A stretch of DNA of 64,000 nt from an uncultured Planctomycetaceae bacterium (lineage in GTDB: Bacteria > Planctomycetota > Planctomycetia > Pirellulales > UBA1268), in assembly GCA_903885565.1 (NCBI GenBank), contig CAISJI010000216.1, positions 8,970-72,969 on the forward strand, written 5' to 3'. Each line of letters opens with the position of its first letter. The stretch's first letter is position 1. The position numbers and the translations under genes are program-made. Below are positions 1 to 45,410 of the stretch, piece after piece. Below the pieces are notes generated by a model, which was not told where the DNA came from, did not search any database, and saw only the letters and a program-made list of their open reading frames with translations.

Positions 1-393
1 CGGCGTCCAGATCACGAGCCCTCCACGGGCGAATTGGAACACCGGCCGCAGGCCCCGCGGACCGACCGGGAACCGCGGCTCTTCCTGACCGAAGTGCCAC
101 GCTGAAGCCAGAAAAAAGGCCATGACTGTGGCGGCCGGCGCCACGAACCAGCCGCACACGACCAGCACCGCAACCGCCAGATACCCGCCCAAAAACACCG
201 GCAGCCACGCCATCCCCAGAACCGGTTCGAGCCGTGGCCTGGCAAAGCGATGGTCGGCCGCGCCGTGCGGCAGGCCGATCAACGCGACGAGACTCGCCAA
301 GACGCCGGCTGTGACGCCGGCTGTGGACTGAGAAAAAAAGCACGCGGCCCCGATCATAGCCCAGCAGAGCAAGATTACCGAGGCCGCGTGCAT
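1..393 (-). CDS. blh: Brp/Blh-family beta-carotene 15,15'-dioxygenase (retinal synthesis); N-terminal part only, runs off the window start
   Basis: Absent from the supplied ORF track because it has no stop inside the window. My hand translation of the minus strand from the ATG at 393 is MHAASVILLCWAMIGAACFFSQSTAGVTAGVLASLVALIGLPHGAADHRFARPRLEPVLGMAWLPVFLGGYLAVAVLVVCGWFVAPAATVMAFFLASAWHFGQEEPRFPVGPRGLRPVFQFARGGLVIWTP. It stays open to base 1. It carries the Brp/Blh hallmarks GLPHGAxD and xxHFG in a multi-TM context. It starts 54 nt after the rhodopsin stop on the same strand. Confidence 0.8.
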   Translation of the reverse strand, partial: MHAASVILLCWAMIGAACFFSQSTAGVTAGVLASLVALIGLPHGAADHRFARPRLEPVLGMAWLPVFLGGYLAVAVLVVCGWFVAPAATVMAFFLASAWHFGQEEPRFPVGPRGLRPVFQFARGGLVIWTP

Positions 394-1284: not shown

Positions 1285-1760
1285 CGTTTCACCTGCTTTC
1301 TGTGTGGTTAAAAAATTCCCGCTGCCTCACGCTCCGGGCAAGCTCCATCTCATCCATTGGCAGGCTCTTTCCGGCCGACCGCTGGCACAGGCTGGTTTCA
1401 CCCTGCGAGGCCTTTCGCACGTTCCCCAAACAACTTTGAAGGTTAGCCAGTGAAGAACACTTCGGCAAGTGGATGCCGGCCGAAAAACGGAATCTATCCC
1501 GCGGCGGCGGTAGCGCCACGGCATTGAGCTACGGGCGCGTGTGGCTGTTTTGGATGGCTCTTGGAGTTTCTTTTCCATGGGGCGATTGTTCGGTCTCCAC
1601 TGGCGCTCGAATGGGATGGCAAATTCCGAGCCCGTTGAGGATCGTCAGGCCCGCGGCACAGGGGAGCGGCTCACGGCGCCGACCACCGAGCCGGGGCTTC
1701 GTGGTGCGTGGCGGCAAGATTTTCCGGCTGAGATTGGTGCTCGGCCCCCCTGAAATGACT

Positions 1761-4130
1761 TCAATAGCGGGGCTTGCGGCCGAGCTTTTTGAGCCGGTTG
1801 ATGCGGAGCGTGCTGCCCCGAAACACGTTTTCAGGCCAGTCGCCGGCAGTGAGGATCGCACTGTAGATCGCCTTCTGCTCGTAGACGTTGACGCCGAATC
1901 CAGCCAGATACTGCAGCCGGAGATTGCCGTCGCGATTGATCTCCGCGTCGGCTAGCCAGGAACGCAACTGCGGTCCCGCGGCCGCGTAGGAGGAGAACAG
2001 ATCAGCGGCATTGTCGCAGCCGATCTCAGCGAGCGATTCACGCAGCAGGTGGGCATCGGCCGCGCGGAGCCGGCCGTCGATCCGGTCGAGATCGATCGTC
2101 AGCGGACCATTGCAGCCGAGCAGGATCAGGTCGTAGCCTGTGCCTCCGGAGGTATTGCCGAATATCAGGCCGTCGGGAAATACCTGGAGAAACGTGGCGA
2201 TCTCGCTCTTCACCGCCGGCGTGCCCGCCTCGTAGAGCTGCACAAACACCGTGATCACCCCGCCGGGAGCCAGATGCCGGCGTGCCAACTCGAAAAATTC
2301 CTGGGTGTAGAGGTTTGCCGCCCCACGCACCCACGGATCAAAAGGATCGCTCGTGATAGCGTCGAAGTGCTCGGTCGTGGTGCGCAGATAATGGCGGGCA
2401 TCGTCGATCTGCACGGACACTTTTGGATTGCGGATCACGTCGTGGTTGATGCTGCCAAAAAACGCTTCGGCGGTACGTGGCACCTCTGCCTCGATCTCGC
2501 AGATCGTCTCCGCAGCAACGGCGGGATCGACGCTCACGCTCCCTGCCGTAACTCCGGCGCCACAGCCGATGACGAGCACGCGCCGGGGGATTTCGGGAAC
2601 CAGTGTCGCCAGATGGCCGAGCATTCGTTGGAGCCTCATGTCCTGCGGTTCCCCCGAGGCCTGCACCTTGCCGGCGTTGTGGTAGTTGAGCGAGCCATCA
2701 GCGGAGCGGGAGACGGCTAATGTGCTCTCGGACCCTTCGCGAACGGCCAAAAACTCAACCGGCTGCTGGTGAAAGAGCGCGGCCAGCCGCCCCCAGCCAA
2801 CGAGCGCCGGCGCAAGCCCCGGCACCCGCGGAACGAGCAGCACCGCCATGAGCAGGCCAGTCGCAGGGGCGATCCAGCGGCCAAGGCGGGTTGGCCAACG
2901 CGAGTCCGGGAGCGCTGGCGGAACAGCGACAACTGCCGCCAGAGCAGCCGCAACAAGCAACCCTTGCTGTGTGGCCCGGCTCCCCGCTCCCGGCAGCAGC
3001 CAGAGCGCCGCAGCAAGACTGCCCAGAACGGCCCCGAGCGTGTTGGCGGCGAGGACGGCGCCTGTCGCGAGGGGAGTGTTTCCTGAACCATGCGTCGCCG
3101 ACGCGATGGCCAGCGGCAGGGTTGCCCCCCAGAGGCAGGCCGCGGGGAGAACGGCCACAAGGCAGCGGACACAATCGATCTGGAGTTGGGCCCAGGGGGA
3201 CGGCGCCAGCCGCGGGTTGACTGGCCACTCGGGCAGGCCGAGCCCCAGGGCCCAAGCGCCAAAGGCGATGGCCGGCACCAGCGCCACCTGGCACCAGACG
3301 AGCCACGCCCGAGGGGGCTGCAGCGTGCCCGCGACGGCAGCACCGATCCCCATTCCACAGAGAAACCCGGCGAGGATGAGCGAGAAGGTGTAGGTTGTGC
3401 CCCCGAGGAGGAGCGTCAGCAGACGGGTCCAGACCACCTCGGCCGCCAGGGCCGTGGCTCCCGAGAGGCAGGCGGCCACCAGCACCCCCTGATCGAGTGT
3501 TGTCCGCAGGAACGGCTCTCCTCCAGCACGCCTGCCAGGCTCGCTGAGCCCACCTCCACCGAGACGTGTCGCCAGCAGGACCGCCAGCCCGGCGGCGGCG
3601 AGGTTGCAGCCGACTGCGACAAGCGTCGCCACGCCGGTGTCGTGCACCCGGAGGAGGTAGAACCCCGCGAGGAGACACCCCACCACTCCGCCGAACGTGT
3701 TGGCGGCATACAGACCGGCGACCTGCAGGGCGGCGCGACGGCCGTTGCCGAGAGCCCGGGTGGCGACGGGGAGGGCCGCTCCCATCGCCAGTGTGGGCAT
3801 CAGCAGCAGGAGGCAGATTGTGAGCCAGTGGAGCGGTCCTGAAAGACTGCCTGCGGCGGCGATCAGGCCGGGAACGGCCAGGCCGCACAGCGCCGTGACA
3901 ACCTCAAAAGCGGCGCAGGCCAGCAGGGGGGAAATCGTCACGGGGATCATGCGGGGCACGATCAGGGCTCCGGCTCCGAGGCCGGTCATGAACGTGGCGA
4001 GGACGATGGCGAGCGAGCGGGTCGTGCCGCCAACATGCAGGGCGAGCACCTGGAGCCAGACAATCTCATACACAAGCGCCGCAGTGCCGCTGGCAACGAA
4101 CAGCGGCAGAAGGAGCCACGCGGATTTCAT
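1761..4130 (-). CDS. Fused polytopic membrane (MFS-like) / spermidine-synthase-like methyltransferase-fold protein
   Basis: The N-terminal ~480 aa are very hydrophobic with many TM segments. The C-terminal part has VLVIGCGAGVTAGS (SAM/dcSAM fold motif I) and ITSDPFDPW, typical of spermidine synthase-like proteins. I chose the start at MKSAWLLLPLF (4130); the track ORF extends to 4214. Confidence 0.8.
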   Translation of the reverse strand: MKSAWLLLPLFVASGTAALVYEIVWLQVLALHVGGTTRSLAIVLATFMTGLGAGALIVPRMIPVTISPLLACAAFEVVTALCGLAVPGLIAAAGSLSGPLHWLTICLLLLMPTLAMGAALPVATRALGNGRRAALQVAGLYAANTFGGVVGCLLAGFYLLRVHDTGVATLVAVGCNLAAAGLAVLLATRLGGGGLSEPGRRAGGEPFLRTTLDQGVLVAACLSGATALAAEVVWTRLLTLLLGGTTYTFSLILAGFLCGMGIGAAVAGTLQPPRAWLVWCQVALVPAIAFGAWALGLGLPEWPVNPRLAPSPWAQLQIDCVRCLVAVLPAACLWGATLPLAIASATHGSGNTPLATGAVLAANTLGAVLGSLAAALWLLPGAGSRATQQGLLVAAALAAVVAVPPALPDSRWPTRLGRWIAPATGLLMAVLLVPRVPGLAPALVGWGRLAALFHQQPVEFLAVREGSESTLAVSRSADGSLNYHNAGKVQASGEPQDMRLQRMLGHLATLVPEIPRRVLVIGCGAGVTAGSVSVDPAVAAETICEIEAEVPRTAEAFFGSINHDVIRNPKVSVQIDDARHYLRTTTEHFDAITSDPFDPWVRGAANLYTQEFFELARRHLAPGGVITVFVQLYEAGTPAVKSEIATFLQVFPDGLIFGNTSGGTGYDLILLGCNGPLTIDLDRIDGRLRAADAHLLRESLAEIGCDNAADLFSSYAAAGPQLRSWLADAEINRDGNLRLQYLAGFGVNVYEQKAIYSAILTAGDWPENVFRGSTLRINRLKKLGRKPRY

Positions 4131-4323
4131 CGGCTCCAGCCAAGAGTGGGCCCCGGGGGTTGAACTGCCGGATCGTAGCAGTCGGTTGCCACAAGCGCCA
4201 AAGCGGCGGCACAATCCCCCAAACCGCCCTGAAATCGTCAGCCCATGCCGACCGCTGGATCGATCGGCTATTCTTTGAGGCTCGGAGGGATCCCCGCTTC
4301 ACCATGCTCAGGGAGGAATCAGC

Positions 4324-5877
4324 ATGCCAGATGTCGCAAGCCTGATCGCGCTGCATGCCCCTTGGGCCACCGTCGATCGCCAGTGGCGGCTCACGCCATT
4401 TGAGCAGTTCATGTGGATGGATGACCGGCCGGCCTTTCCCCTCGTGTTTGAAGTCGTGCTGCGGTTTGCCGGCCCGATAGACCCGGTCGCGATGGCTGAT
4501 GCCTGGCGGTTTGCGATTGCCCGTCACCCGCTGTTGCGCGCCACCATCCGCACCAGGAGCGGCAGCCTGATCTGGGATGCCCCGGCAACCGGCTGGGTAG
4601 AACTGGCAGTCGCCGGTGCCGATGAGGAGCCTCCGGCCGATCTTCCCCGGATTGACCTCGAACGGGAACCGGGCCTGCAGGGCTCCCTGCGCGAGACGCC
4701 TGAGGGCTGGGATCTGGCGCTGCTCTTTCACCATGCCTGCTGCGATGGCCATGGGGCGCGAATGTTTCTGCAGGATCTTGTGCTCGCCTATACCGTCCTG
4801 GGAGGAGTCTCTCCGGAGGAGGATCCGTTTTTCCGTTCCGATGCTGCCCTGTTGGACGAGCGGGAAAAGGTTCCCAGCGCCGAAGGCGGGGGGAGGGCTG
4901 TGTGGCAGCGCCTCAAGCACGCGGCCCGCTTCTCCCTGCTGCGGCCCACACCAGTGGCGAGCAATATTTCCCCCGGCTTAGCAGGCTGTGGACAAAGTGC
5001 AGCATCGCTGGATGCGATGCCCGTCGGCCGTGGAAAACCTCGGCTTTTCCACCGGGCGACCGAGTGGAAAAAGTGCATAGAGGACTTTTTCCACGGGCGG
5101 TTAGCCCAGCCTGCCAGGCATCCATCAGGCTCCTCTCTCGGGCATCGCACGCACACGTTCTCTGCCGATGAAGTGGCGGGTATGGATGCCATCCAGCAGC
5201 GTTTCAGCGCCACCCGCAACGATATTGCCGTAGCGATGCTCTTCTCCGTGCTTGCTGGGTGGCAGCGGAGCAATCGAATCTCCCCACAGGCCCGGATGCG
5301 CGTCGCTGTGCCTACCGACATGCGTTCGCGCGCTGACGAGCGAATGCCGGCCGCCAATCGCTACACCTATATTTTTCTCGAACGCCGCATCGCCGACTGT
5401 GGCGACTGGGAATCGCTGCTGCCGGGGTTGCAACGCGATTTCCAGGAGCGCAGGCAGCAGGGACGGGGCATCCAGTTTCTCAGCTCGCTCAAGCGGGCCG
5501 CGCGCTTCCCTCAGGCCATGCGCTGGGTTTTGCAACGGCCCACCTGCTTTGCAACGGCTGTGCTCACGAATCTCAGCGATCCTTCGTGGCGGCTTCGCAA
5601 GCGACTGCCGGTGGATGCGGAGGGGCTCATGTGGCTCGGCAAGGCGCAGTGCCTCGACATCCAGATCCGGACGCCGCCGCTGCGGCCCGGCACGCGCTGG
5701 GGTTTTGGCATTTTCGAGTATGCCGGGAGGATGACGATCTCCTTCCGCTACGACGCAACGTCGATCACATCTGACGCGGCCGATGCGATTATGGAATGCT
5801 ACGTCAAGCACTGGCAGACGCTGCTGGCAACCTCAGAGGGCTGTCGCCAATCGGCGATCGCATCAGCAGCGGAGTGA
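4324..5877 (+). CDS. Condensation-domain / PapA5- or WS-DGAT-like acyltransferase (HHxxxDG) carrying an internal repeat element
   Basis: 517 aa. HHACCDG lies at aa 136-142. A C-domain-like TRNDIAVAMLFSVLAGW motif lies downstream in the same frame. Residues ~226-258 are encoded by the 98-bp repeat listed below. Confidence 0.7.
   Translation: MPDVASLIALHAPWATVDRQWRLTPFEQFMWMDDRPAFPLVFEVVLRFAGPIDPVAMADAWRFAIARHPLLRATIRTRSGSLIWDAPATGWVELAVAGADEEPPADLPRIDLEREPGLQGSLRETPEGWDLALLFHHACCDGHGARMFLQDLVLAYTVLGGVSPEEDPFFRSDAALLDEREKVPSAEGGGRAVWQRLKHAARFSLLRPTPVASNISPGLAGCGQSAASLDAMPVGRGKPRLFHRATEWKKCIEDFFHGRLAQPARHPSGSSLGHRTHTFSADEVAGMDAIQQRFSATRNDIAVAMLFSVLAGWQRSNRISPQARMRVAVPTDMRSRADERMPAANRYTYIFLERRIADCGDWESLLPGLQRDFQERRQQGRGIQFLSSLKRAARFPQAMRWVLQRPTCFATAVLTNLSDPSWRLRKRLPVDAEGLMWLGKAQCLDIQIRTPPLRPGTRWGFGIFEYAGRMTISFRYDATSITSDAADAIMECYVKHWQTLLATSEGCRQSAIASAAE
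5000..5097 (+). repeat. 98-bp double-hairpin repeat, copy I (inside the CDS 4324..5877)
   Basis: Near-identical to 35231..35327 in the same orientation. The shared string is CAGCATCGCTGGATGCGATGCCCGTCG...CCGAGTGGAAAAAGTGC...GACTTTTTC. Hairpin B is GTGGAAAAAGT/ACTTTTTCCAC, a perfect 11-bp stem. Hairpin A is GTCGGCCGTGGAAAA/TTTTCCACCGGGCGAC, which is imperfect. Confidence 0.85.
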
Positions 5878-31093: not shown

Positions 31094-34000
31094 TTATCGC
31101 CACTCGACGAAAGCGCTCTGGCCGGGGGCGATGTCGATGGCCAAGGAAGGGGCGGAGGGAAACGTGCGGTTCGAGCGCCACTCCCGCGCTTCGCGGAAGC
31201 CGCCCCGGGGCTTGAGTGTGATATGGGCTACCGCAGCCGGATCAACTGTCACTGGTTCATTCGGTTTTTTGGCAATGCCAGCATTGTTGATCAGTTCGAT
31301 CACCCAGCCGCTGGCCGTACGGTTGACCTGATATTGAATGGCATCCCCCGTCACCTCCACCGGCAGGAGATCCCCGGAGAGTTTTTCCAGTCTGGGGGTG
31401 GCGATCGCCGCCGGCCGGCCCGTGGCGGGGTTTGTCCAGGGATCGAGCACCTCCACCCGCCCGCCCCCCGAGAGGCTGGTCAACTCGACAAACCGTGCCC
31501 CGAGCGCCTCTCGGTGGGCTGGTGAGACCAGCAGCGTGCAGCCCTGCTCGACCGAGTGGCGGAGCTTGGCGAGCGTGGCGTCGTCAAACTCGATGTCGCC
31601 CGCGAGGAGCAACACCTGATAGCTGGCCAGCATTTCCGCACTGGCGCCGGTCAGTTGCACATCAAACATTTCGCCGTAGGGAGTGGGGCGCAGATAAGCC
31701 GCCTCGGGATTGTCGCGATTGGGCGGGGCATGGATGTGGTCAGCGCCGGGAAAGAGCTGGGAGTCGAAGAGATCGCGCAGCTGGCGGTCGCCGGGAGTGG
31801 GCTCCAGAATGCCCCAGGGCTTGTCCATGTAGCCGTTGTAGCCGGCCAGATGGTCGAGCAGAATCGCCACAGGCGTGAAGGGAACGCCCCTCTGGTGCTC
31901 CTGCATGAACTGATACACCTCCGCTGCCTTGCGGCCGTGGGAGGTGAGCGTCCAGGGAGCAGCGGCCTGCTCGAAAAAGATGCTGATGCTGTTTTCGGGA
32001 GTCACCATCGCGGCACCGGCAAACCACGAGTGCAGCCAGAGCCGCTCGTAGAAGCTCAAGCTGTGGCCGGCGTCGAGGCCTCGGGCCATTCCCCCTTCGC
32101 TGCGCAGCGGGCCGCTGGTGGTGCAGGCACCGGCAAACCATGGGCTCACCTGCACGGACCAGGGCTTCTGCCACTGTCGGGAGGCGCCTCGCGCGAACGC
32201 CAGTTTCGACTGCGTGAAGGCGATGTTCTCGCCCAGCTCCAGTCCGATGCACCGAGCCCCCCACTCGCCTGCATAGGCCTCGTAATGGGAATGCCCGTTG
32301 ACGCTGATCACGCGGTCGAGAAGATCGCGGCAGCGGTGTTTGAAATACCGCTCCACCGCCTCGTAGCACTCCCGCTTGCCGCTGGGCATCTGGTCGTAGC
32401 CGCTGAAGCCCGCCGGCTTCATCAGATGTTTGAAGGCGTCGAACTCCGCGCCATACACATCCCGCCACCACTTCTCGTTGTGCGACAGCCGATGGAAGTA
32501 GTAGCCCCACTCCCCCAGCTGCACGGCGGTGAATCTTCCCTCGCGGTCCATCGCTTCCCAAGCGGACGCCTCCGCCGCGCCGAGCACGCAGCGGCCACCA
32601 TCGATCTGCATGTCGGCGCAACAGGTGCTCACAACCGGCCAGCCGGTCGTGGCGAGCATGTCAAACAGCGGCTTGGCGTGGGGGGCGGGCCCCGGCCCCG
32701 GGTCGAAGCCGTTGCCCAGCTTCTCTTTCCGCATCACCGCGATCAGCTGTTCCAGGGCGGCAAGCTCTCCCGGCACGCCGTACATCGTGAAGGCGCAGCC
32801 GGAGTGGCCAGGCAGGGACCGCAGCCCAAATCGCTCAGGCAGCGGCACGGCGGCCGCGGCCACGAGATCTTTCAGACAATCGGCCCAGAGCCGGTAGCCC
32901 GCCGGACTCAGATGCACGCCATCGGGGGAGATCTCGGCCGGCAGCGTGCCGTCAGGCCTGAGCAAGCGCAGGCCAACATCGGCAAAACGCACCTGTCCGC
33001 CGTCGGCGAGGTTGGCGATCAGCCTGTTCACCTCACCGATTTTCAGTCGATCGGGGCTGGCGGAGGAATGATCCTTGGGAAACGTGCCGAGCAGAAGGAT
33101 CTCCGACTCCGGCAATTTCTCCCGCAGCCGAGCGACAATTGTCTCGATGCCGCGGGCGATGTCGGCGGCGGAGTGATGAGGGGAGGCGACGATATTGTTG
33201 ACGCCAATCATCAACACCACCAGTCGGGGGCGGAGCCCGTCCACGGCACCATGGTCGAGCTGCCAGAGGATGTGCTGCGTCTGGCTGCCGGCGATGCCGA
33301 TCGAGGCGGCCCGGCGGGGCACAAACTCCTGCTCCCACACCTCCCGGCCGATATCGCGCCAGCCGGAAGTGATCGAATCGCCAAGGAACAGAATCTCCGG
33401 TCCTCCCGCCAGCCCACGCACTTCGGCCACGCGTTCCCCATGTCGCAAGCACCATTCGTCATTGGGCCGCTGGGGCACCGCTGCATCGGCGGCGCCGGGA
33501 ACGTGGACCGTGCCAGCAGGCCGGATGCCAGCCGGGACGATCGAGAGAGCCTCCTCCTGTTCCATCGCCAGTGAAACCTTGCCGTCAGCCACGGGCAGAT
33601 TCGCCTGGCGGAGCGTGCAGCCGGCGGTTGTGATTGCGTAGAGATCAACTGCCTTCACATCCTGCCAGTCGGCTGGCAGTCGCCAGGCCTTGCCAGGAGT
33701 TCCTCTGTTTGACCAGGCGATGACCTCCCGCGGATTCCACAGCGCCGGCACGAACAGATCGTCGTCGGCCCGGAGCACAAAATCCCCCTGACGGATCGTG
33801 CGAACCCCCTCCTCCGTGCGGGCCACGACGCCATCGCCGTAGGTCAGCACATCGTTTTTGAACGACAGGCGGTCGTGGCGGCTGAGGAAATACCAGGGAA
33901 GCGTGGTGCGGCAGAACATCGCCAGGAAGCCGGGCATCGTTTCCTTGTCACGCTGCCAGATCTCCTCTGCGTGCATGCTCGAGCCAAACCGGAAATCGCC

Positions 34001-35236
34001 ATCGTTATCCCGGTCGGTGCGGCCGCGGGCCATCAGCCGCTCAGGGATTCTCATCTGATAACCGCGGTCGCCCGGATACCACCATGACATCGCCTGCAGT
34101 CCGGTGAAGCCTTCGCCCGGCGGATGGGCCCAGAAGATCCCCTCGCCGGTCACATCGAAGCCCCGGTCGCGCCAATACTGAAAAATCTTCCGCTGCGTCT
34201 CCACATATTTCTCAGGCGTCAGCCCGCCATGCTCGGGAAGGGCGTGCCAGGGGCTGACCGGTTTGCCATTATCGCGCTGGGCGATGAAGACATCGATGTG
34301 GATCGTGTGGCCATCCTTCAGTTCGGGCACCATCTCGATCAGCCGGTCGATCCGGCGCTGTGCCAGCCCCGCCTCCCATTCGCGGGGATAGACGACGTTG
34401 TACATGTCGTCGCCCACGATCTGGATGCCGGGCACGAGCAGCTTGCCCTCCTCATCCTTGGCCAGCAGATCCTGCTTGACATACTCATCCCACAGCGGGC
34501 TATGGCGATAGGCATCGACCATATTGATATGGAGGCTGACGGTGGTGTTGTAACGCCTTGCCTCGCGGATGAGCCAGCGCAGGCTTTCGAGCGCTGTGGC
34601 GTCATGGGGCAGTTTCAGCCGCGGGTTGACCTCGTCCCAGGCGGGGTAGCCATGGTCATGGCCCCCTTTCTGCCAGCCGACGAGGTAGACGATCTTGGGG
34701 ATGCCGCGGGTGAGGTTGTCGGTTTTGCGGATCACCTCCAGCGCCTCCTCAAACGTGCAGAGCACATCATGCGGCTTCTGGAAGAGCGGCTCTTTTGCCA
34801 GTCGCTCCACCGGTTCCCCTTCCATTCCCAGAAAGAGCTTTGTCACCAGACACTGGTGGTAATCGCGGTAGAAGGGGGCGACCACCACACTCGTGCTGGC
34901 GGAATGCTGCTTGCCATCCCGTTCCAAGGTCGCCTGAATGCGGGCGACGCCCCCTGCGCGGGGCAGAATCTGTCCGTTTTCAATGGTGACAACCTCCACG
35001 CCGCCGCTGGCCTCGGTGGTGGTGGCGGTGATTGCGGCGGCCGCCGGATCGATCGGCAGCCGTTGCCCAGAGGAGCTGACGGCAGTGAGGGTGATTCGCG
35101 CGGCCCCATGGGGATCGCGCACGAGTTGGAGCGTGGGCCTGTCGAGGGCGATCTCAAGGCGATCGATCGGCATGGGCTCTGCAGCCGATGCCGACAGCGT
35201 GGCCAGTGCTAGCAGGCTGCCGATCAGGTTCAGCAT
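31094..35236 (-). CDS. Secreted multidomain glycoside-hydrolase-like protein (GH101/endo-alpha-N-acetylgalactosaminidase-like + SGNH/GDSL hydrolase + large C-terminal domain)
   Basis: The signal-like N-terminus is MLNLIGSLLALATLSASAAEP. IVYLVGWQKGGHDHGYPAWDEV is GH101-like. FLGDSITSGW is SGNH block I. The final ~600 aa are an uncharacterised region. The track ORF start (35437) reads through repeat copy II, so I prefer 35236. Confidence 0.8.
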   Translation of the reverse strand: MLNLIGSLLALATLSASAAEPMPIDRLEIALDRPTLQLVRDPHGAARITLTAVSSSGQRLPIDPAAAAITATTTEASGGVEVVTIENGQILPRAGGVARIQATLERDGKQHSASTSVVVAPFYRDYHQCLVTKLFLGMEGEPVERLAKEPLFQKPHDVLCTFEEALEVIRKTDNLTRGIPKIVYLVGWQKGGHDHGYPAWDEVNPRLKLPHDATALESLRWLIREARRYNTTVSLHINMVDAYRHSPLWDEYVKQDLLAKDEEGKLLVPGIQIVGDDMYNVVYPREWEAGLAQRRIDRLIEMVPELKDGHTIHIDVFIAQRDNGKPVSPWHALPEHGGLTPEKYVETQRKIFQYWRDRGFDVTGEGIFWAHPPGEGFTGLQAMSWWYPGDRGYQMRIPERLMARGRTDRDNDGDFRFGSSMHAEEIWQRDKETMPGFLAMFCRTTLPWYFLSRHDRLSFKNDVLTYGDGVVARTEEGVRTIRQGDFVLRADDDLFVPALWNPREVIAWSNRGTPGKAWRLPADWQDVKAVDLYAITTAGCTLRQANLPVADGKVSLAMEQEEALSIVPAGIRPAGTVHVPGAADAAVPQRPNDEWCLRHGERVAEVRGLAGGPEILFLGDSITSGWRDIGREVWEQEFVPRRAASIGIAGSQTQHILWQLDHGAVDGLRPRLVVLMIGVNNIVASPHHSAADIARGIETIVARLREKLPESEILLLGTFPKDHSSASPDRLKIGEVNRLIANLADGGQVRFADVGLRLLRPDGTLPAEISPDGVHLSPAGYRLWADCLKDLVAAAAVPLPERFGLRSLPGHSGCAFTMYGVPGELAALEQLIAVMRKEKLGNGFDPGPGPAPHAKPLFDMLATTGWPVVSTCCADMQIDGGRCVLGAAEASAWEAMDREGRFTAVQLGEWGYYFHRLSHNEKWWRDVYGAEFDAFKHLMKPAGFSGYDQMPSGKRECYEAVERYFKHRCRDLLDRVISVNGHSHYEAYAGEWGARCIGLELGENIAFTQSKLAFARGASRQWQKPWSVQVSPWFAGACTTSGPLRSEGGMARGLDAGHSLSFYERLWLHSWFAGAAMVTPENSISIFFEQAAAPWTLTSHGRKAAEVYQFMQEHQRGVPFTPVAILLDHLAGYNGYMDKPWGILEPTPGDRQLRDLFDSQLFPGADHIHAPPNRDNPEAAYLRPTPYGEMFDVQLTGASAEMLASYQVLLLAGDIEFDDATLAKLRHSVEQGCTLLVSPAHREALGARFVELTSLSGGGRVEVLDPWTNPATGRPAAIATPRLEKLSGDLLPVEVTGDAIQYQVNRTASGWVIELINNAGIAKKPNEPVTVDPAAVAHITLKPRGGFREAREWRSNRTFPSAPSLAIDIAPGQSAFVEWR

Positions 35237-35327
35237 CGCTGGATGCGATGCCCGTCGACCGGGGAAACCCTCGACGTTTCCACCGGTCGACCGAGTGGAA
35301 AAAGTGCCGGGACGACTTTTTCTACGG
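35231..35327 (+). repeat. 98-bp double-hairpin repeat, copy II (5' of the GH gene start, minus-strand upstream region)
   Basis: Aligns base-for-base with 5000..5097 apart from scattered substitutions. Hairpin A is GTCGACCGGGGAAAC/GTTTCCACCGGTCGAC. Hairpin B is GTGGAAAAAGT/ACTTTTTCTAC with one G-U pair. Confidence 0.85.
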
Positions 35328-35732
35328 ACAGCTGCGATGAGGAGCGGGAAGAACCAAACAGCCGGGATCGTGCGCATGGGGTAAAAATTCCTGCAGGAAG
35401 AAAACCAGCCACCCAGAGGGGCGGTGCCGGGGGGCATGATTATGCCACGAGAATGGGTTGCACAGGCAAATCGGGCCGGATGCGGTGGAGGGGGAGCGAG
35501 ATACCGCCAGCCGGCCCCTCGGCGGGGGGCGTTCCTATGGTCGCCCCAGTGGGCTGTCTTCGATCCCGAGGGGCAGGGATGACTTTCACCACGGAGAGTT
35601 AGAATGAAGGCTCGTCGGGCTGTGGATCAAGGGCGTGTCCCGCAGCCAGGTTGAGTTCCAGCGAGAAGAACTCGCGCCTCCAGCGATCTTCAGATCGACA
35701 ACGCACATTCGCCCTGGTGCAGAAAGTGGCTC

Positions 35733-40139: not shown

Positions 40140-40221
40140 GCCTGCTAGAGGCCACTACCGCCGCACCGCGGATGCACTTGAGCCTCCGCCTGCGCGGCAC
40201 TTTTCCCTGAATCGACCGCAG

Positions 40222-40240
40222 GAAAACCCCGAGGGTTTTC
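40222..40240. terminator. Perfect 8-bp hairpin, possible bidirectional terminator (downstream of TPR-2 and of tRNA-Val)
   Basis: GAAAACCC-cga-GGGTTTTC. It lies 83 nt after the TPR-2 stop and 45 nt after the tRNA 3' end on the other strand. No long U-run follows. Confidence 0.35.
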
Positions 40241-40284
40241 TGGATCGACCACCTCCGCATCGAGCGGGGCATACACACATTCAC

Positions 40285-40358
40285 TGGGCAAAGAGGGACT
40301 CGAACCCCCAACCCCCTCGGTGTAAGCGAGGTGCTCTAACCAATTGAGCTATTTGCAC
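40285..40358 (-). tRNA. tRNA-Val (anticodon UAC)
   Basis: I folded the minus strand by hand as a 74-nt cloverleaf. The D stem is GCTC/GAGC. The anticodon stem is CCTCG/CGAGG with loop CTTACAC (UAC). The variable loop has 5 nt. The T arm is GGGGG-TTCGAGT-CCCTC. The discriminator is A and no CCA is encoded. Acceptor pair 2:71 is a U-C mismatch. Confidence 0.85.
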
Positions 40359-43254: not shown

Positions 43255-43974
43255 TCAGCCGGTTCCCATGGGGCCGCGGCGGCTCTTGCCGGCGGCTGGC
43301 TGCACGCCTATTCGCGGGCAGATATCGGCCAGAAGACAGGCCCCGCAGCGCGGAACACGAGCGGAGCAAACACCGCGGCCATGCTCGATCAGCCTGTGGC
43401 TCCAGCCGATCCAGTGGGACTGGGGCACCGCGGCGATCAGATCACGCTCGGCCCGCACGGCGTCGGTATGGCGGGTGAGGCCCAGCCGGCGGGAGAGCCG
43501 CCCCACATGGGTGTCGACCACCACTCCCACCGCCGTGTGGAACGCGCAGCCCAGCACCACATTGGCAGTTTTGCGCCCCACGCCCGGCAGTTTCACTAAA
43601 GCCTCGAGCGATTCTGGAACCTCCCCCCCATGCCGGTCGACCAGAGCCTGGCAGCAGGCGAGGATATTCTTCGCCTTGGCGCGGAAGAAGCCGGTGCTGT
43701 GGATCATCTCCTCGATCTCGGGCTGCTCCGCTGCGGCCATGGCCTGCGGGGTGGGCCAGCGGCGAAACAGGGCTCCCGTCACGACATTGACCCGTTTGTC
43801 GGTGCACTGGGCCGACAGAATCGTTGCCACAAGCAATTGAAACGGGGTGGCGAAATCGAGCGAGCAACGGGCCTCGGGGTGGGCTTCCGCCAGACGCTCG
43901 GCCACGGTGGCCGCTTGCCGGGCACGGTCTGCCGCTGAACGAGGCGCTGCGGGGCGAAGGGTGCTACGATTCAT
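43255..43974 (-). CDS. nth: Endonuclease III (DNA-(apurinic or apyrimidinic site) lyase)
   Basis: FQLLVATILSAQCTDKRVN, the HhH LPGVGRKTANVVL and the 4Fe-4S cluster CSARVPRCGACLLADIC are present. Confidence 0.9.
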   Translation of the reverse strand: MNRSTLRPAAPRSAADRARQAATVAERLAEAHPEARCSLDFATPFQLLVATILSAQCTDKRVNVVTGALFRRWPTPQAMAAAEQPEIEEMIHSTGFFRAKAKNILACCQALVDRHGGEVPESLEALVKLPGVGRKTANVVLGCAFHTAVGVVVDTHVGRLSRRLGLTRHTDAVRAERDLIAAVPQSHWIGWSHRLIEHGRGVCSARVPRCGACLLADICPRIGVQPAAGKSRRGPMGTG

Positions 43975-44006
43975 GGGAATGTCCAGACCGTCCTCAGGAG
44001 TCGACC

Positions 44007-44417
44007 ATGGCAGCGAGCGATCCGCCGCCCCTCTACGACCCGCTCTATCTGCAGGGCATCGAAAAATTCAATGAGTGCGATTACTACGAAAGCCACGAGG
44101 TGTGGGAGGAACTCTGGACCGAATACCGGGGGGATTCGAGAAAATTCTATCAGGGACTGATCCAGGCGGCCGTCGCCCTCTATCATTTTGGCAACGGAAA
44201 CATTCGCGGCGCCCGCAAACTTCATACAAGCGTCCACGGCTATCTGGAGCCCTACGCCCCGGTTCACCTCGGGCTCGATCTGGTGGGGTTTCTCCGGTCG
44301 TTCGACACCTGCCTCGCCGAAGTGGCTGCCAGCACGGAAGAATTTCCCTCCATCGAACTCAATCCGGAACTGCTCCCTGAAATCCACCTCGATCCAGCCC
44401 CTCCAGACGTAACGTAA
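44007..44417 (+). CDS. DUF309 domain protein
   Basis: GIEKFNECDYYESHEVWEELW...QGLIQAAVALYHFGNGNIRGARKL is the DUF309 signature. The start is ATG 44007. Confidence 0.75.
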   Translation: MAASDPPPLYDPLYLQGIEKFNECDYYESHEVWEELWTEYRGDSRKFYQGLIQAAVALYHFGNGNIRGARKLHTSVHGYLEPYAPVHLGLDLVGFLRSFDTCLAEVAASTEEFPSIELNPELLPEIHLDPAPPDVT

Positions 44418-44450
44418 ACTGCCCGTGGAAAAAGTCATCTCCGAATCGAA

Positions 44451-45155: not shown

Positions 45156-45161
45156 AATTTA

Positions 45162-45367
45162 CGCCCGCAGGGCCATCCATGGCCCCTGCAGGCTTGGGCA
45201 GGCGAAGGCGAAGCCAAGGTTCGCCTAGCCTGCCGGGGCCCGCCGTCCGGGCGGGTTGGCTTCGCGCCCGCAGGGCCATCCATGGCCCCTGCAGGCTTGG
45301 GGCATTCGGAGTCACAGCCGAGGTGTGCCTCGAATGCAAGTGCCCGCCGTCCGGGCGGGCGGCGGGC
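45162..45367 (+). repeat. Two diverged tandem ~103-bp units, each made of a 38-bp palindromic module plus the 18-bp module GCCCGCCGTCCGGGCGGG
   Basis: CGCCCGCAGGGCCATCCATGGCCCCTGCAGGCTTGGG occurs at 45162-45198 and 45265-45301. GCCCGCCGTCCGGGCGGG occurs at 45238-45255 and 45342-45359. The spacing is 103-104 nt in both cases and the sequence between modules has diverged. Confidence 0.8.
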
Positions 45368-45373
45368 ACTTGC
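45336..45373 (+). other. Perfect 13-bp inverted repeat (stem-loop) in the folE upstream gap
   Basis: GCAAGTGCCCGCC-gtccgggcgggc-GGCGGGCACTTGC. The 5' arm can alternatively pair with GGCGGG inside the loop, giving mutually exclusive hairpins. Confidence 0.7.
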
Positions 45374-45375
45374 AA

Positions 45376-45410
45376 TCCCGTGTGCATCGATCATGTCGGG
45401 ACGATTTTTT
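45376..45410 (+). terminator. Weak terminator-like hairpin plus T6 run
   Basis: TCCCG...CGGGA flanks a segment centred on the ATCGAT palindrome, followed by ACGATTTTTTC. The stem is short, so this is a low-confidence call. Confidence 0.3.

Follow-up and report, generated by a model that had tools for sequence, protein, structure and literature searches.

Within 64,000 nucleotides of an uncultured Planctomycetaceae bacterium (Pirellulales; assembly GCA_903885565.1, contig CAISJI010000216.1, positions 8,970 to 72,969; hereafter, the window), a 119-bp hairpin-forming repeat occurs in two copies about 30 kb apart and in identical orientation, copy I inside the gene of a stand-alone condensation-fold protein and copy II probably across the 5' end of a GH101/GDSL multidomain gene. 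We conclude, with a probability of roughly 0.85, that the repeat is a miniature transposon with inverted repeats at its ends (a MITE), that is, a non-autonomous DNA transposon, belonging to a family that is abundant in freshwater Pirellulales-like Planctomycetes and is most likely mobilised in trans by an enzyme of the IS5 type. The repeat has the defining features of a MITE, although a search of related contigs found no autonomous partner. The family is new, the kind of element is known, and fusion of such elements into genes is already known elsewhere in bacteria. Copy I provides a clean natural example of a transposon insertion that a gene can survive, combining a length that is a multiple of three, a location in a disordered linker and the absence of the stop codon that the family consensus carries.

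Boundaries, ends and target-site duplication

A sequence-only reading of the window had described two near-identical copies of a 98-bp repeat. Both copies are present as it said: two conserved blocks (28 and 20 nt) occur exactly twice each in the window, and two matches to either block were seen in 0 of 100 window shuffles. "Near-identical" was generous, the copies agreeing at 86 of 98 positions within that reading's coordinates and at 100 of 119 (84%) across the full element, and the 98-bp extent was too narrow. When some 70 further copies and the empty sites are taken into account, each window copy measures 119 bp, plus flanking 4-bp repeats; similarity within the family starts 18 nt to the left of the start first proposed and stops 3 nt to the right of the proposed end. 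The family consensus is laid out as CAGGCTGTGGATAAAGTGCA, hairpin 1, hairpin 2, hairpin 3 and CGGGCAG, with 19-bp terminal inverted repeats (CAGGCTGTGGATAAAGTGC and GGACTTTTTCCACGGGCAG) that are imperfect (13/19 matches in the consensus, 14/19 in copy I). The size classes among 80 full-length copies are 119 bp (n = 33) and 132 bp (n = 29), and translation of the consensus in six frames revealed no transposase open reading frame (ORF).

Most copies are flanked by one of the 4-mers CTAG, TTAG, CTAA and TTAA. After contigs representing one locus had been collapsed, there were 65 distinct insertion sites, and their left flanks read CTAG in 22 cases, TTAG in 11, CTAA in 6 and TTAA in 3. Thirty sites have the pattern Py-TA-Pu (YTAR) on both flanks, and the left 4-mer equals the right one in 23 of these 30. 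The left and right flanking 4-mers co-vary at their outer bases (Fisher p = 0.008 for the first base, p = 0.0009 for the last), which argues for a true 4-bp duplication and not for a 2-bp TA duplication of the IS630 type. In the gene that holds copy I, the filled site exceeds the empty orthologous site by 123 bp, that is, by 119 + 4.

The IS5 insertion sequence (IS) duplicates Py-T-A-Pu, with CTAG recorded 15 times, CTAA 3 times and TTAG 3 times (PMC5493358). The family resembles it in the 4-bp Py-TA-Pu duplication and in the order of preference, with CTAG first (PMC5493358); the ranking within the family is CTAG > TTAG > CTAA > TTAA. This signature makes mobilisation in trans by an IS5-type enzyme the most likely mode of spread. 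As in MITEs derived from IS5, the element is small, has no transposase gene, ends in imperfect inverted repeats, and occurs in many dispersed copies with presence/absence polymorphism; it differs in its three internal hairpins with conserved loops and covarying stems, which MITEs do not usually have, and in that its diverged relatives stand in tandem arrays. Neither a cognate element of the IS5 type nor a DDE_Tnp_1-type transposase gene was seen in the fetched DNA. The ends of the family may resemble the IS5 end, GGAAGGTGCGAATAAG.

Copy I is an in-frame insertion in a condensation-fold gene

The ORF that contains copy I is open across it, with element and duplication together forming codons 220-260. 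The sequence-only reading had stated that the repeat is translated within an open coding sequence with condensation-domain motifs on both sides, and this is confirmed, the motifs being HHACCDG (aa 136-142) and, further on, TRNDIAVAMLF (about aa 297-307). The Pfam PF00668 match has a score of 26.6, just under the cut-off of 30.6, and an AlphaFold (AF2) model of the protein matches condensation, epimerisation and cyclisation (C/E/Cy) domains and PapA5 with Foldseek E values of 3e-18 to 4e-14. The HHxxxDG motif and the two-lobe, CAT-like fold of the model confirm that the protein belongs to the condensation-domain superfamily. It has 183 homologues; full-length orthologues measure 437-552 aa, and the three closest insert-free ones 476 aa.

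Of 16 orthologues in the alignment, 15 lack exactly 41 residues at this point, three of these 15 being 92-93% identical; the remaining orthologue, which is 91% identical, has them. In DNA comparisons, the window and the related contigs L001 and L040 have the element and L002 and L003 lack it, the difference being exactly 123 bp. Copy I is thus, on the evidence of these alignments, a true in-frame insertion and not ancestral sequence, as the sequence-only reading had supposed. Outside the element, dN/dS is 0.128-0.129 at dS = 0.33 between the window gene and those of the other insert-bearing lineages, and 0.14-0.17 for pairs that include an insert-free gene. The value of about 0.13 between insert-bearing lineages indicates that purifying selection has continued to act on the gene after it took up the insert. 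Within the element, the ratio is 0.5-0.9 at few sites, which indicates that the inserted peptide itself is not conserved. In the AlphaFold model, the N and C lobes are confident, and residues 205-269, among which the insert occupies 220-260, have a predicted local distance difference test (pLDDT) value below 50; a low-pLDDT stretch at this place in a two-lobe condensation fold puts the insert in the inter-lobe linker, in agreement with the location between two subdomains that had been proposed. The orthologue alignment, too, varies most in this linker.

In the frame of copy I, the family consensus contains a stop (GGA TAA AGT, reading LAGCG*SAASLD), and the TAA is replaced by CAA in copy I. 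Among the distinct family copies compared, this CAA variant, GGACAAAG, occurs only in the window, L001 and L040. The missing in-frame stop points to selection for an open frame, and either the rare variant alone was tolerated at this site or the stop was repaired after insertion. In a four-taxon test of whether the insertion is ancestral, informative sites split 13/11/11 across the three topologies, a star-like mosaic that gives no order of gain and loss; so even a split suggests that presence or absence of the insert is a polymorphism in recombining lake populations. The dS of the window gene to the insert-free genes of L002 and L003 (0.24-0.26) is less than that to the insert-bearing genes of L001 and L040 (0.33).

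Copy II probably interrupts a signal-peptide coding region

Copy II had been read as lying just upstream of the glycoside hydrolase (GH) gene and as creating a misleading N-terminal extension; the evidence is that it probably does neither. The frame in which it is read on the minus strand is open in the family consensus, and the long ORF crosses the element from the ATG at 35377. Deletion of 35213-35335 (123 bp) gives MRTIPAVWFFPLLILALATLSASA followed directly by AEP, joining MRTIPAVWFFPLLI to (A/L)ALATLSASA-AEP, a canonical signal peptide of 24 residues. The cleavage region so restored aligns with that of GH101 homologues, whose signal peptides are roughly 20-30 residues long there. Past the element, ALATLSASA alone remains ahead of the predicted cleavage site; since this is too short for a signal peptide, and given the result of the deletion, copy II was probably inserted in frame inside the signal-peptide coding region, and the extension from ATG 35377 is likely the original N-terminus.

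Copy II contributes RRASHPA and then an in-frame ATG (35236-35234) that opens MLNLIGSLL. Either a signal sequence within the protein (RRASHPA-MLNLIGSLLALATLSASA) or a new start codon could come from it, and both starts would be compatible with export; the element may now provide the GH enzyme with its start codon and the first eight residues of its export signal. Compared with the consensus, copy II has 14 mismatches, 5 of them within the first 18 nt, and these five changes turn HFIH into the more hydrophobic NLIG. The element is flanked by CTAG on the left (35209-35212) and by a decayed CTGC on the right (35332-35335).

The GH101-like protein (31094-35437, minus strand) measures about 1,400 aa, with a GDSL lipase domain at its centre and a long C-terminal stretch without a Pfam match. 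Most homologues in the collection have about 580 aa, which makes the window protein an unusual fusion.

Dispersal and usual sites of the family

A 20-mer from hairpin 1 identified 106 stretches in public metagenome contigs, mostly from freshwater lakes, and a 25-mer identified one contig of a Pirellulales metagenome-assembled genome in the genome collection; in the plasmid collection, BLAST with the consensus gave merely a chance match of 25 nt. With 106 such stretches, the repeat is not a product of local gene conversion but a family of elements, in line with the sequence-only reading. We assembled a sample of 80 full copies, which represent 74 distinct loci and the 65 distinct insertion sites. 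Using a codon log-odds model that was trained on 254 long ORFs of the same contigs and recovers the true frame in 88.5% of 120-nt windows, we found that 21 of the 74 distinct loci adjoin the TAG stop of a flanking ORF, the duplicated tetranucleotide including the stop. Of the stop-abutting copies, 9 have the gene on one side, 11 on the other and 1 on both, so that there is no orientation bias. A further 6 loci lie within 60 nt past a stop, and at least 4, probably 5, precede the start of a gene by a few codons (L016, L018, L046 and L087; probably L021). Read-through in the middle of a gene was seen in the condensation-fold gene only, among 65-74 distinct sites. The family is accordingly a typical, mostly intergenic MITE, and its in-frame copy is a survivor of selection. 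Given the preference for TAG stops and 5' leaders, the element is a likely modifier of 3' and 5' untranslated regions, and the family accounts for odd inserts and for ORF extensions that mislead when these genomes are annotated.

A coherent course of events can be proposed for these sites. The element inserts at Py-TA-Pu tetranucleotides and duplicates them, a signature of IS5-type DDE transposases; in this GC-rich genome, such sites are found mainly at TAG stops and just upstream of starts, where most copies sit. Copy I struck a TTAG within a gene, adding 123 bp, or 41 codons, to a flexible linker between enzyme lobes, and with the sole in-frame TAA reading CAA, the protein stayed intact and functional with a disordered insert of 41 residues. 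Copy II probably struck a CTAG where the GH101/GDSL gene encodes its signal peptide, and here, too, the frame was kept.

Hairpins, covariation and conserved loops

Both strands of both copies fold far better than shuffled controls (z = -3.7 to -4.8). The pair of GTGGAAAA/TTTTCCAC hairpins described by the sequence-only reading is present, and a third hairpin, which it had not counted, precedes them with a 7-bp stem (GCATCGC-TGGAT-GCGATGC). Covariation, which had been suggested as a check on these hairpins, is evident: among 121 distinct copies, compensatory changes occur at 30 of 31 base pairs, and 95.4% of cells are paired compared with 40-52% when the partners are slid, values that no shuffle reached, although the alignment was fitted to the model and the pairing figures are somewhat inflated by this. 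The loops are kept while the stems vary. Hairpin 1 has the loop YGGAK, with GGA in 22 of the 28 copies that were not selected via the search word; the hairpin 2 loop keeps CCTYGG; and the hairpin 3 loop keeps CATGGATG, with GGA in 105 of 121. Diverged subfamilies have wholly different stems in the same architecture. Conserved loops on covarying stems could indicate a protein-binding function. The motif TGGA(T/A) is found also in the inverted ends and the stems, a distribution that makes it a candidate transposase-binding site, and it may serve as one.

An extra GC-rich mini-hairpin, GCCAGCCGGCCCCTCGGCGGGGAGC, is nested in the hairpin 2 loop of some copies (L008:519-655, L030:3390-3536, L011:2838-2985, L032:7787-7919 and window 35499-35530) and looks like a small insertion.

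Weighing the alternatives

Several observations weigh against a MITE moved by an IS5-type enzyme. Related contigs totalling 780 kb yielded no autonomous element whose ends match; a search there for paired inverted ends 400-4000 bp apart and for copies diverging after hairpin 2 returned just separate MITEs in pairs and an unrelated element of the IS630 type. The sole transposase gene seen beside a copy is that of this IS630-type element, which has different ends. Diverged subfamilies (for example, window 45157-45380) are tandem, lack the left inverted end and a clear duplication, and resemble arrays of repetitive extragenic palindromic (REP) sequences or BIMEs. L002 and L003 have GGGG and GTGG at their empty sites in place of TTAG, and for copy II the protein collection offered no close orthologue of the GH gene as an empty site (best identity 71%, with N-termini that are not comparable).

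The IS630-type element of contig L098 (317-1512) has a 369-aa transposase (DDE_3 and HTH) and perfect 20-bp ends, TGTCCTGAGTCGGAAGTTCG, and sits exactly in the CTAG common to two head-to-head MITE copies, 195-312 (+) and 1516-1634 (-). Its position there indicates that MITE ends recreate the rare CTAG target and attract further insertions. The IS630 family duplicates the dinucleotide TA. Derivation of the repeat from an IS630 or Tc1-mariner element was ruled out by the co-variation of the outer flank bases, and the IS630-type ends in L098 are unrelated to those of the repeat.

The least improbable alternative, which we still consider unlikely, is that the element is an RNA control module spread by transposition, with GGA in the loops of hairpins 1 and 3 serving, for example, as CsrA sites; it would seed such sites beside hundreds of genes or titrate the regulator. 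GGA in a hairpin loop is a hallmark of CsrA targets, and the GGA loops of the family resemble the CsrA consensus. If true, selection on the RNA would explain loops that are fixed and stems that covary across deeply diverged subfamilies, and the retention of GGA in both loops while the stems change fits this. On the plus strand, G-U mismatches outnumber A-C mismatches (99 to 55), but this count, too, comes from the alignment fitted to the model. Csr/Rsm RNAs share with the family the GGA in hairpin loops (CUGGAUG, CAUGGAUG), and window 45156-45282 gives a weak RsmW-like match (25 bits); this is below the Rfam gathering score of 52, and the family, unlike those RNAs, occurs in both orientations relative to genes and inside coding sequence, its CsrA sites being putative. 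No Rfam family reaches threshold in the element: only tRNA passes the gathering threshold in the whole window, and hits with E up to 10 on the two element regions include nothing meaningful. The absence of orientation bias at stop codons (9 + 1 vs. 11 + 1) counts against an RNA role, as does the presence of TGGA(T/A) in inverted ends and stems, where it could be bound by a transposase. A CsrA homologue is encoded in the related contig L065. That gene (L065:414-566, minus strand; identity with CsrA of E. coli and B. subtilis 43-49% across 51 aa) is separated by about 270 nt from a family copy (L065:31-146, plus strand), which may be chance given the density of copies. Somewhat less probable again is a REP or REPIN-type element moved by a tyrosine transposase that recognises hairpins (REP-associated, RAYT, or IS200-like), the flanking 4-mers then being cleavage sites. 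Strong hairpin covariation, implying selection on structure, conserved loops on changing stems and the existence of tandem arrays all speak for it, and the family shares with REP, BIME and REPIN sequences that it consists of intergenic GC-rich stem-loops, often clustered or in tandem and often just past genes, in which structure is kept more than sequence. Against this, the left and right flanks co-vary as a true duplication would, the element terminates in inverted repeats, there was no sign of association with a RAYT, and the units, at 119-132 bp, are three to five times longer than the 20-40-bp palindromes of REP families, which make no target duplication and carry unpaired GTAG or CGTC tags and, when tagged, stems of 8-9 bp (PMC3733652). 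No unpaired GTAG or CGTC tag is present; a CGTC-tagged REP in particular was rejected, as the CGTC is paired within the hairpin 2 stem, whose length differs from the 8-9 bp of tagged families (PMC3733652).

We give still less credence to the comparison made by the sequence-only reading, with Rickettsia palindromic elements (RPEs), by which the repeat would be a selfish element adapted to coding genes, its length and sequence selected for in-frame, stop-free and tolerated inserts. Copy I is in frame and tolerated, copy II is probably in frame, the 119-bp class plus its duplication is a multiple of three, and two of the six consensus frames are fully open. The behaviour of the family as a whole is otherwise, however: one mid-gene event was found in 65-74 distinct sites, most copies are at stop codons or in untranslated leaders, the consensus has a stop in the frame of copy I, the 132-bp class with its duplication adds 136 bp and would shift the frame, and the inserted peptide, at dN/dS 0.5-0.9, is not conserved. 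In-frame fusions of MITEs with host genes are known for RPE, ERIC, BOX, Coxiella QMITE1 and Anabaena MITEs, in several phyla (PMC10969869). Copy I is like RPEs and other intragenic MITEs in being a palindromic repeat placed in frame, at a tolerated position, in a conserved gene that remains functional (PMC10969869); the family differs from them in that its coding insertions are rare (1-2 of about 65 sites), inverted ends and duplication are clear, there is no sequence relationship, and the phylum is another. Searches of the literature turned up no paper that describes such a MITE family in Planctomycetes; in-frame insertion as such is not new. That the two copies arose at two loci by local duplication or by gene conversion, or that copy I marks a decaying pseudogene, is scarcely credible: the raw window shows just two intact copies, but more than 100 copies exist at unrelated loci, and the host gene has an intact frame, is colinear with its orthologues and evolves at dN/dS 0.13, which refutes the pseudogene that had been named as a possible outcome.

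Further members of the family in the window

Searches of the window with two models of the family, a covariance model and an nhmmer profile, gave at least four more copies, diverged or partial, which makes six or seven family members in 64 kb (Table 1). The decayed copy at 35512-35598 lies in the GH/TPR intergenic region, with TTAG next to it at 35599-35602, and the remnant at 44419-44436 lies one base past the TAA stop of ORF 43824..44417. The tandem units at 45157-45380 keep the three-hairpin architecture with other stems and the conserved loops CGGAC, CCTYGGC and ATGGAT.

Table 1. Positions of the element copies, their parts and their host genes in the window.
Feature	Position	Strand	Evidence or remark
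Gene that contains copy I (517-aa stand-alone condensation-fold protein)	4324..5877	+	Pfam PF00668 at aa 43-160
Left target-site duplication of copy I, TTAG	4978..4981	+	identical 4-mer at right end
Copy I, probable MITE, 119 bp	4982..5100	+	cmsearch 144.8 bits; exactly absent from L002, L003
Copy I, left inverted end	4982-5000
Copy I, CAA codon replacing consensus TAA	4991..4993	+	GGA CAA AGT
Copy I, hairpin 1	5002-5020
Copy I, hairpin 2	about 5023-5061
Copy I, hairpin 3	5064-5094
Copy I, right inverted end	5082-5100
Right target-site duplication of copy I, TTAG	5101..5104	+
GH101/GDSL multidomain gene	31094..35377	-	Pfam; likely original start ATG 35377
Copy II, probable MITE, 119 bp	35213..35331	+	cmsearch 128.8 bits
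Decayed long-variant copy, right two thirds	35512..35598	+	nhmmer E = 7.5e-9
Diverged member without most of hairpin 3	40190..40286	-	cmsearch 25 bits, E = 6e-5; nhmmer E = 1.7e-4
Lone right-end inverted repeat, truncated remnant	44419..44436	-	18/18 match
Two tandem units, diverged subfamily	45157..45380 (45260-45380 + 45157-45258)	-	cmsearch 49.1, 46.6 bits, E about 1e-10

Two head-to-tail units occur at L004:315-545, L094:3-160, L096:447-690 and L086:453-707, as at window 45157-45380; those of L094 are without hairpin 2 and have a period of about 91 nt. The family can, by the look of these arrangements, produce modular deletion variants and form short tandem arrays, for which simple cut-and-paste is not an obvious explanation. 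The copy at 40190-40286 directly adjoins a minus-strand tRNA gene (40285-40358) on its 3' side, with an overlap of about 2 bases in the model alignment. Elsewhere in the window, the minus strand of 1761-4214 holds an 817-aa ORF with a long, multi-pass hydrophobic N-terminal half and a methyltransferase domain resembling spermidine/spermine synthase (aa 528-657).

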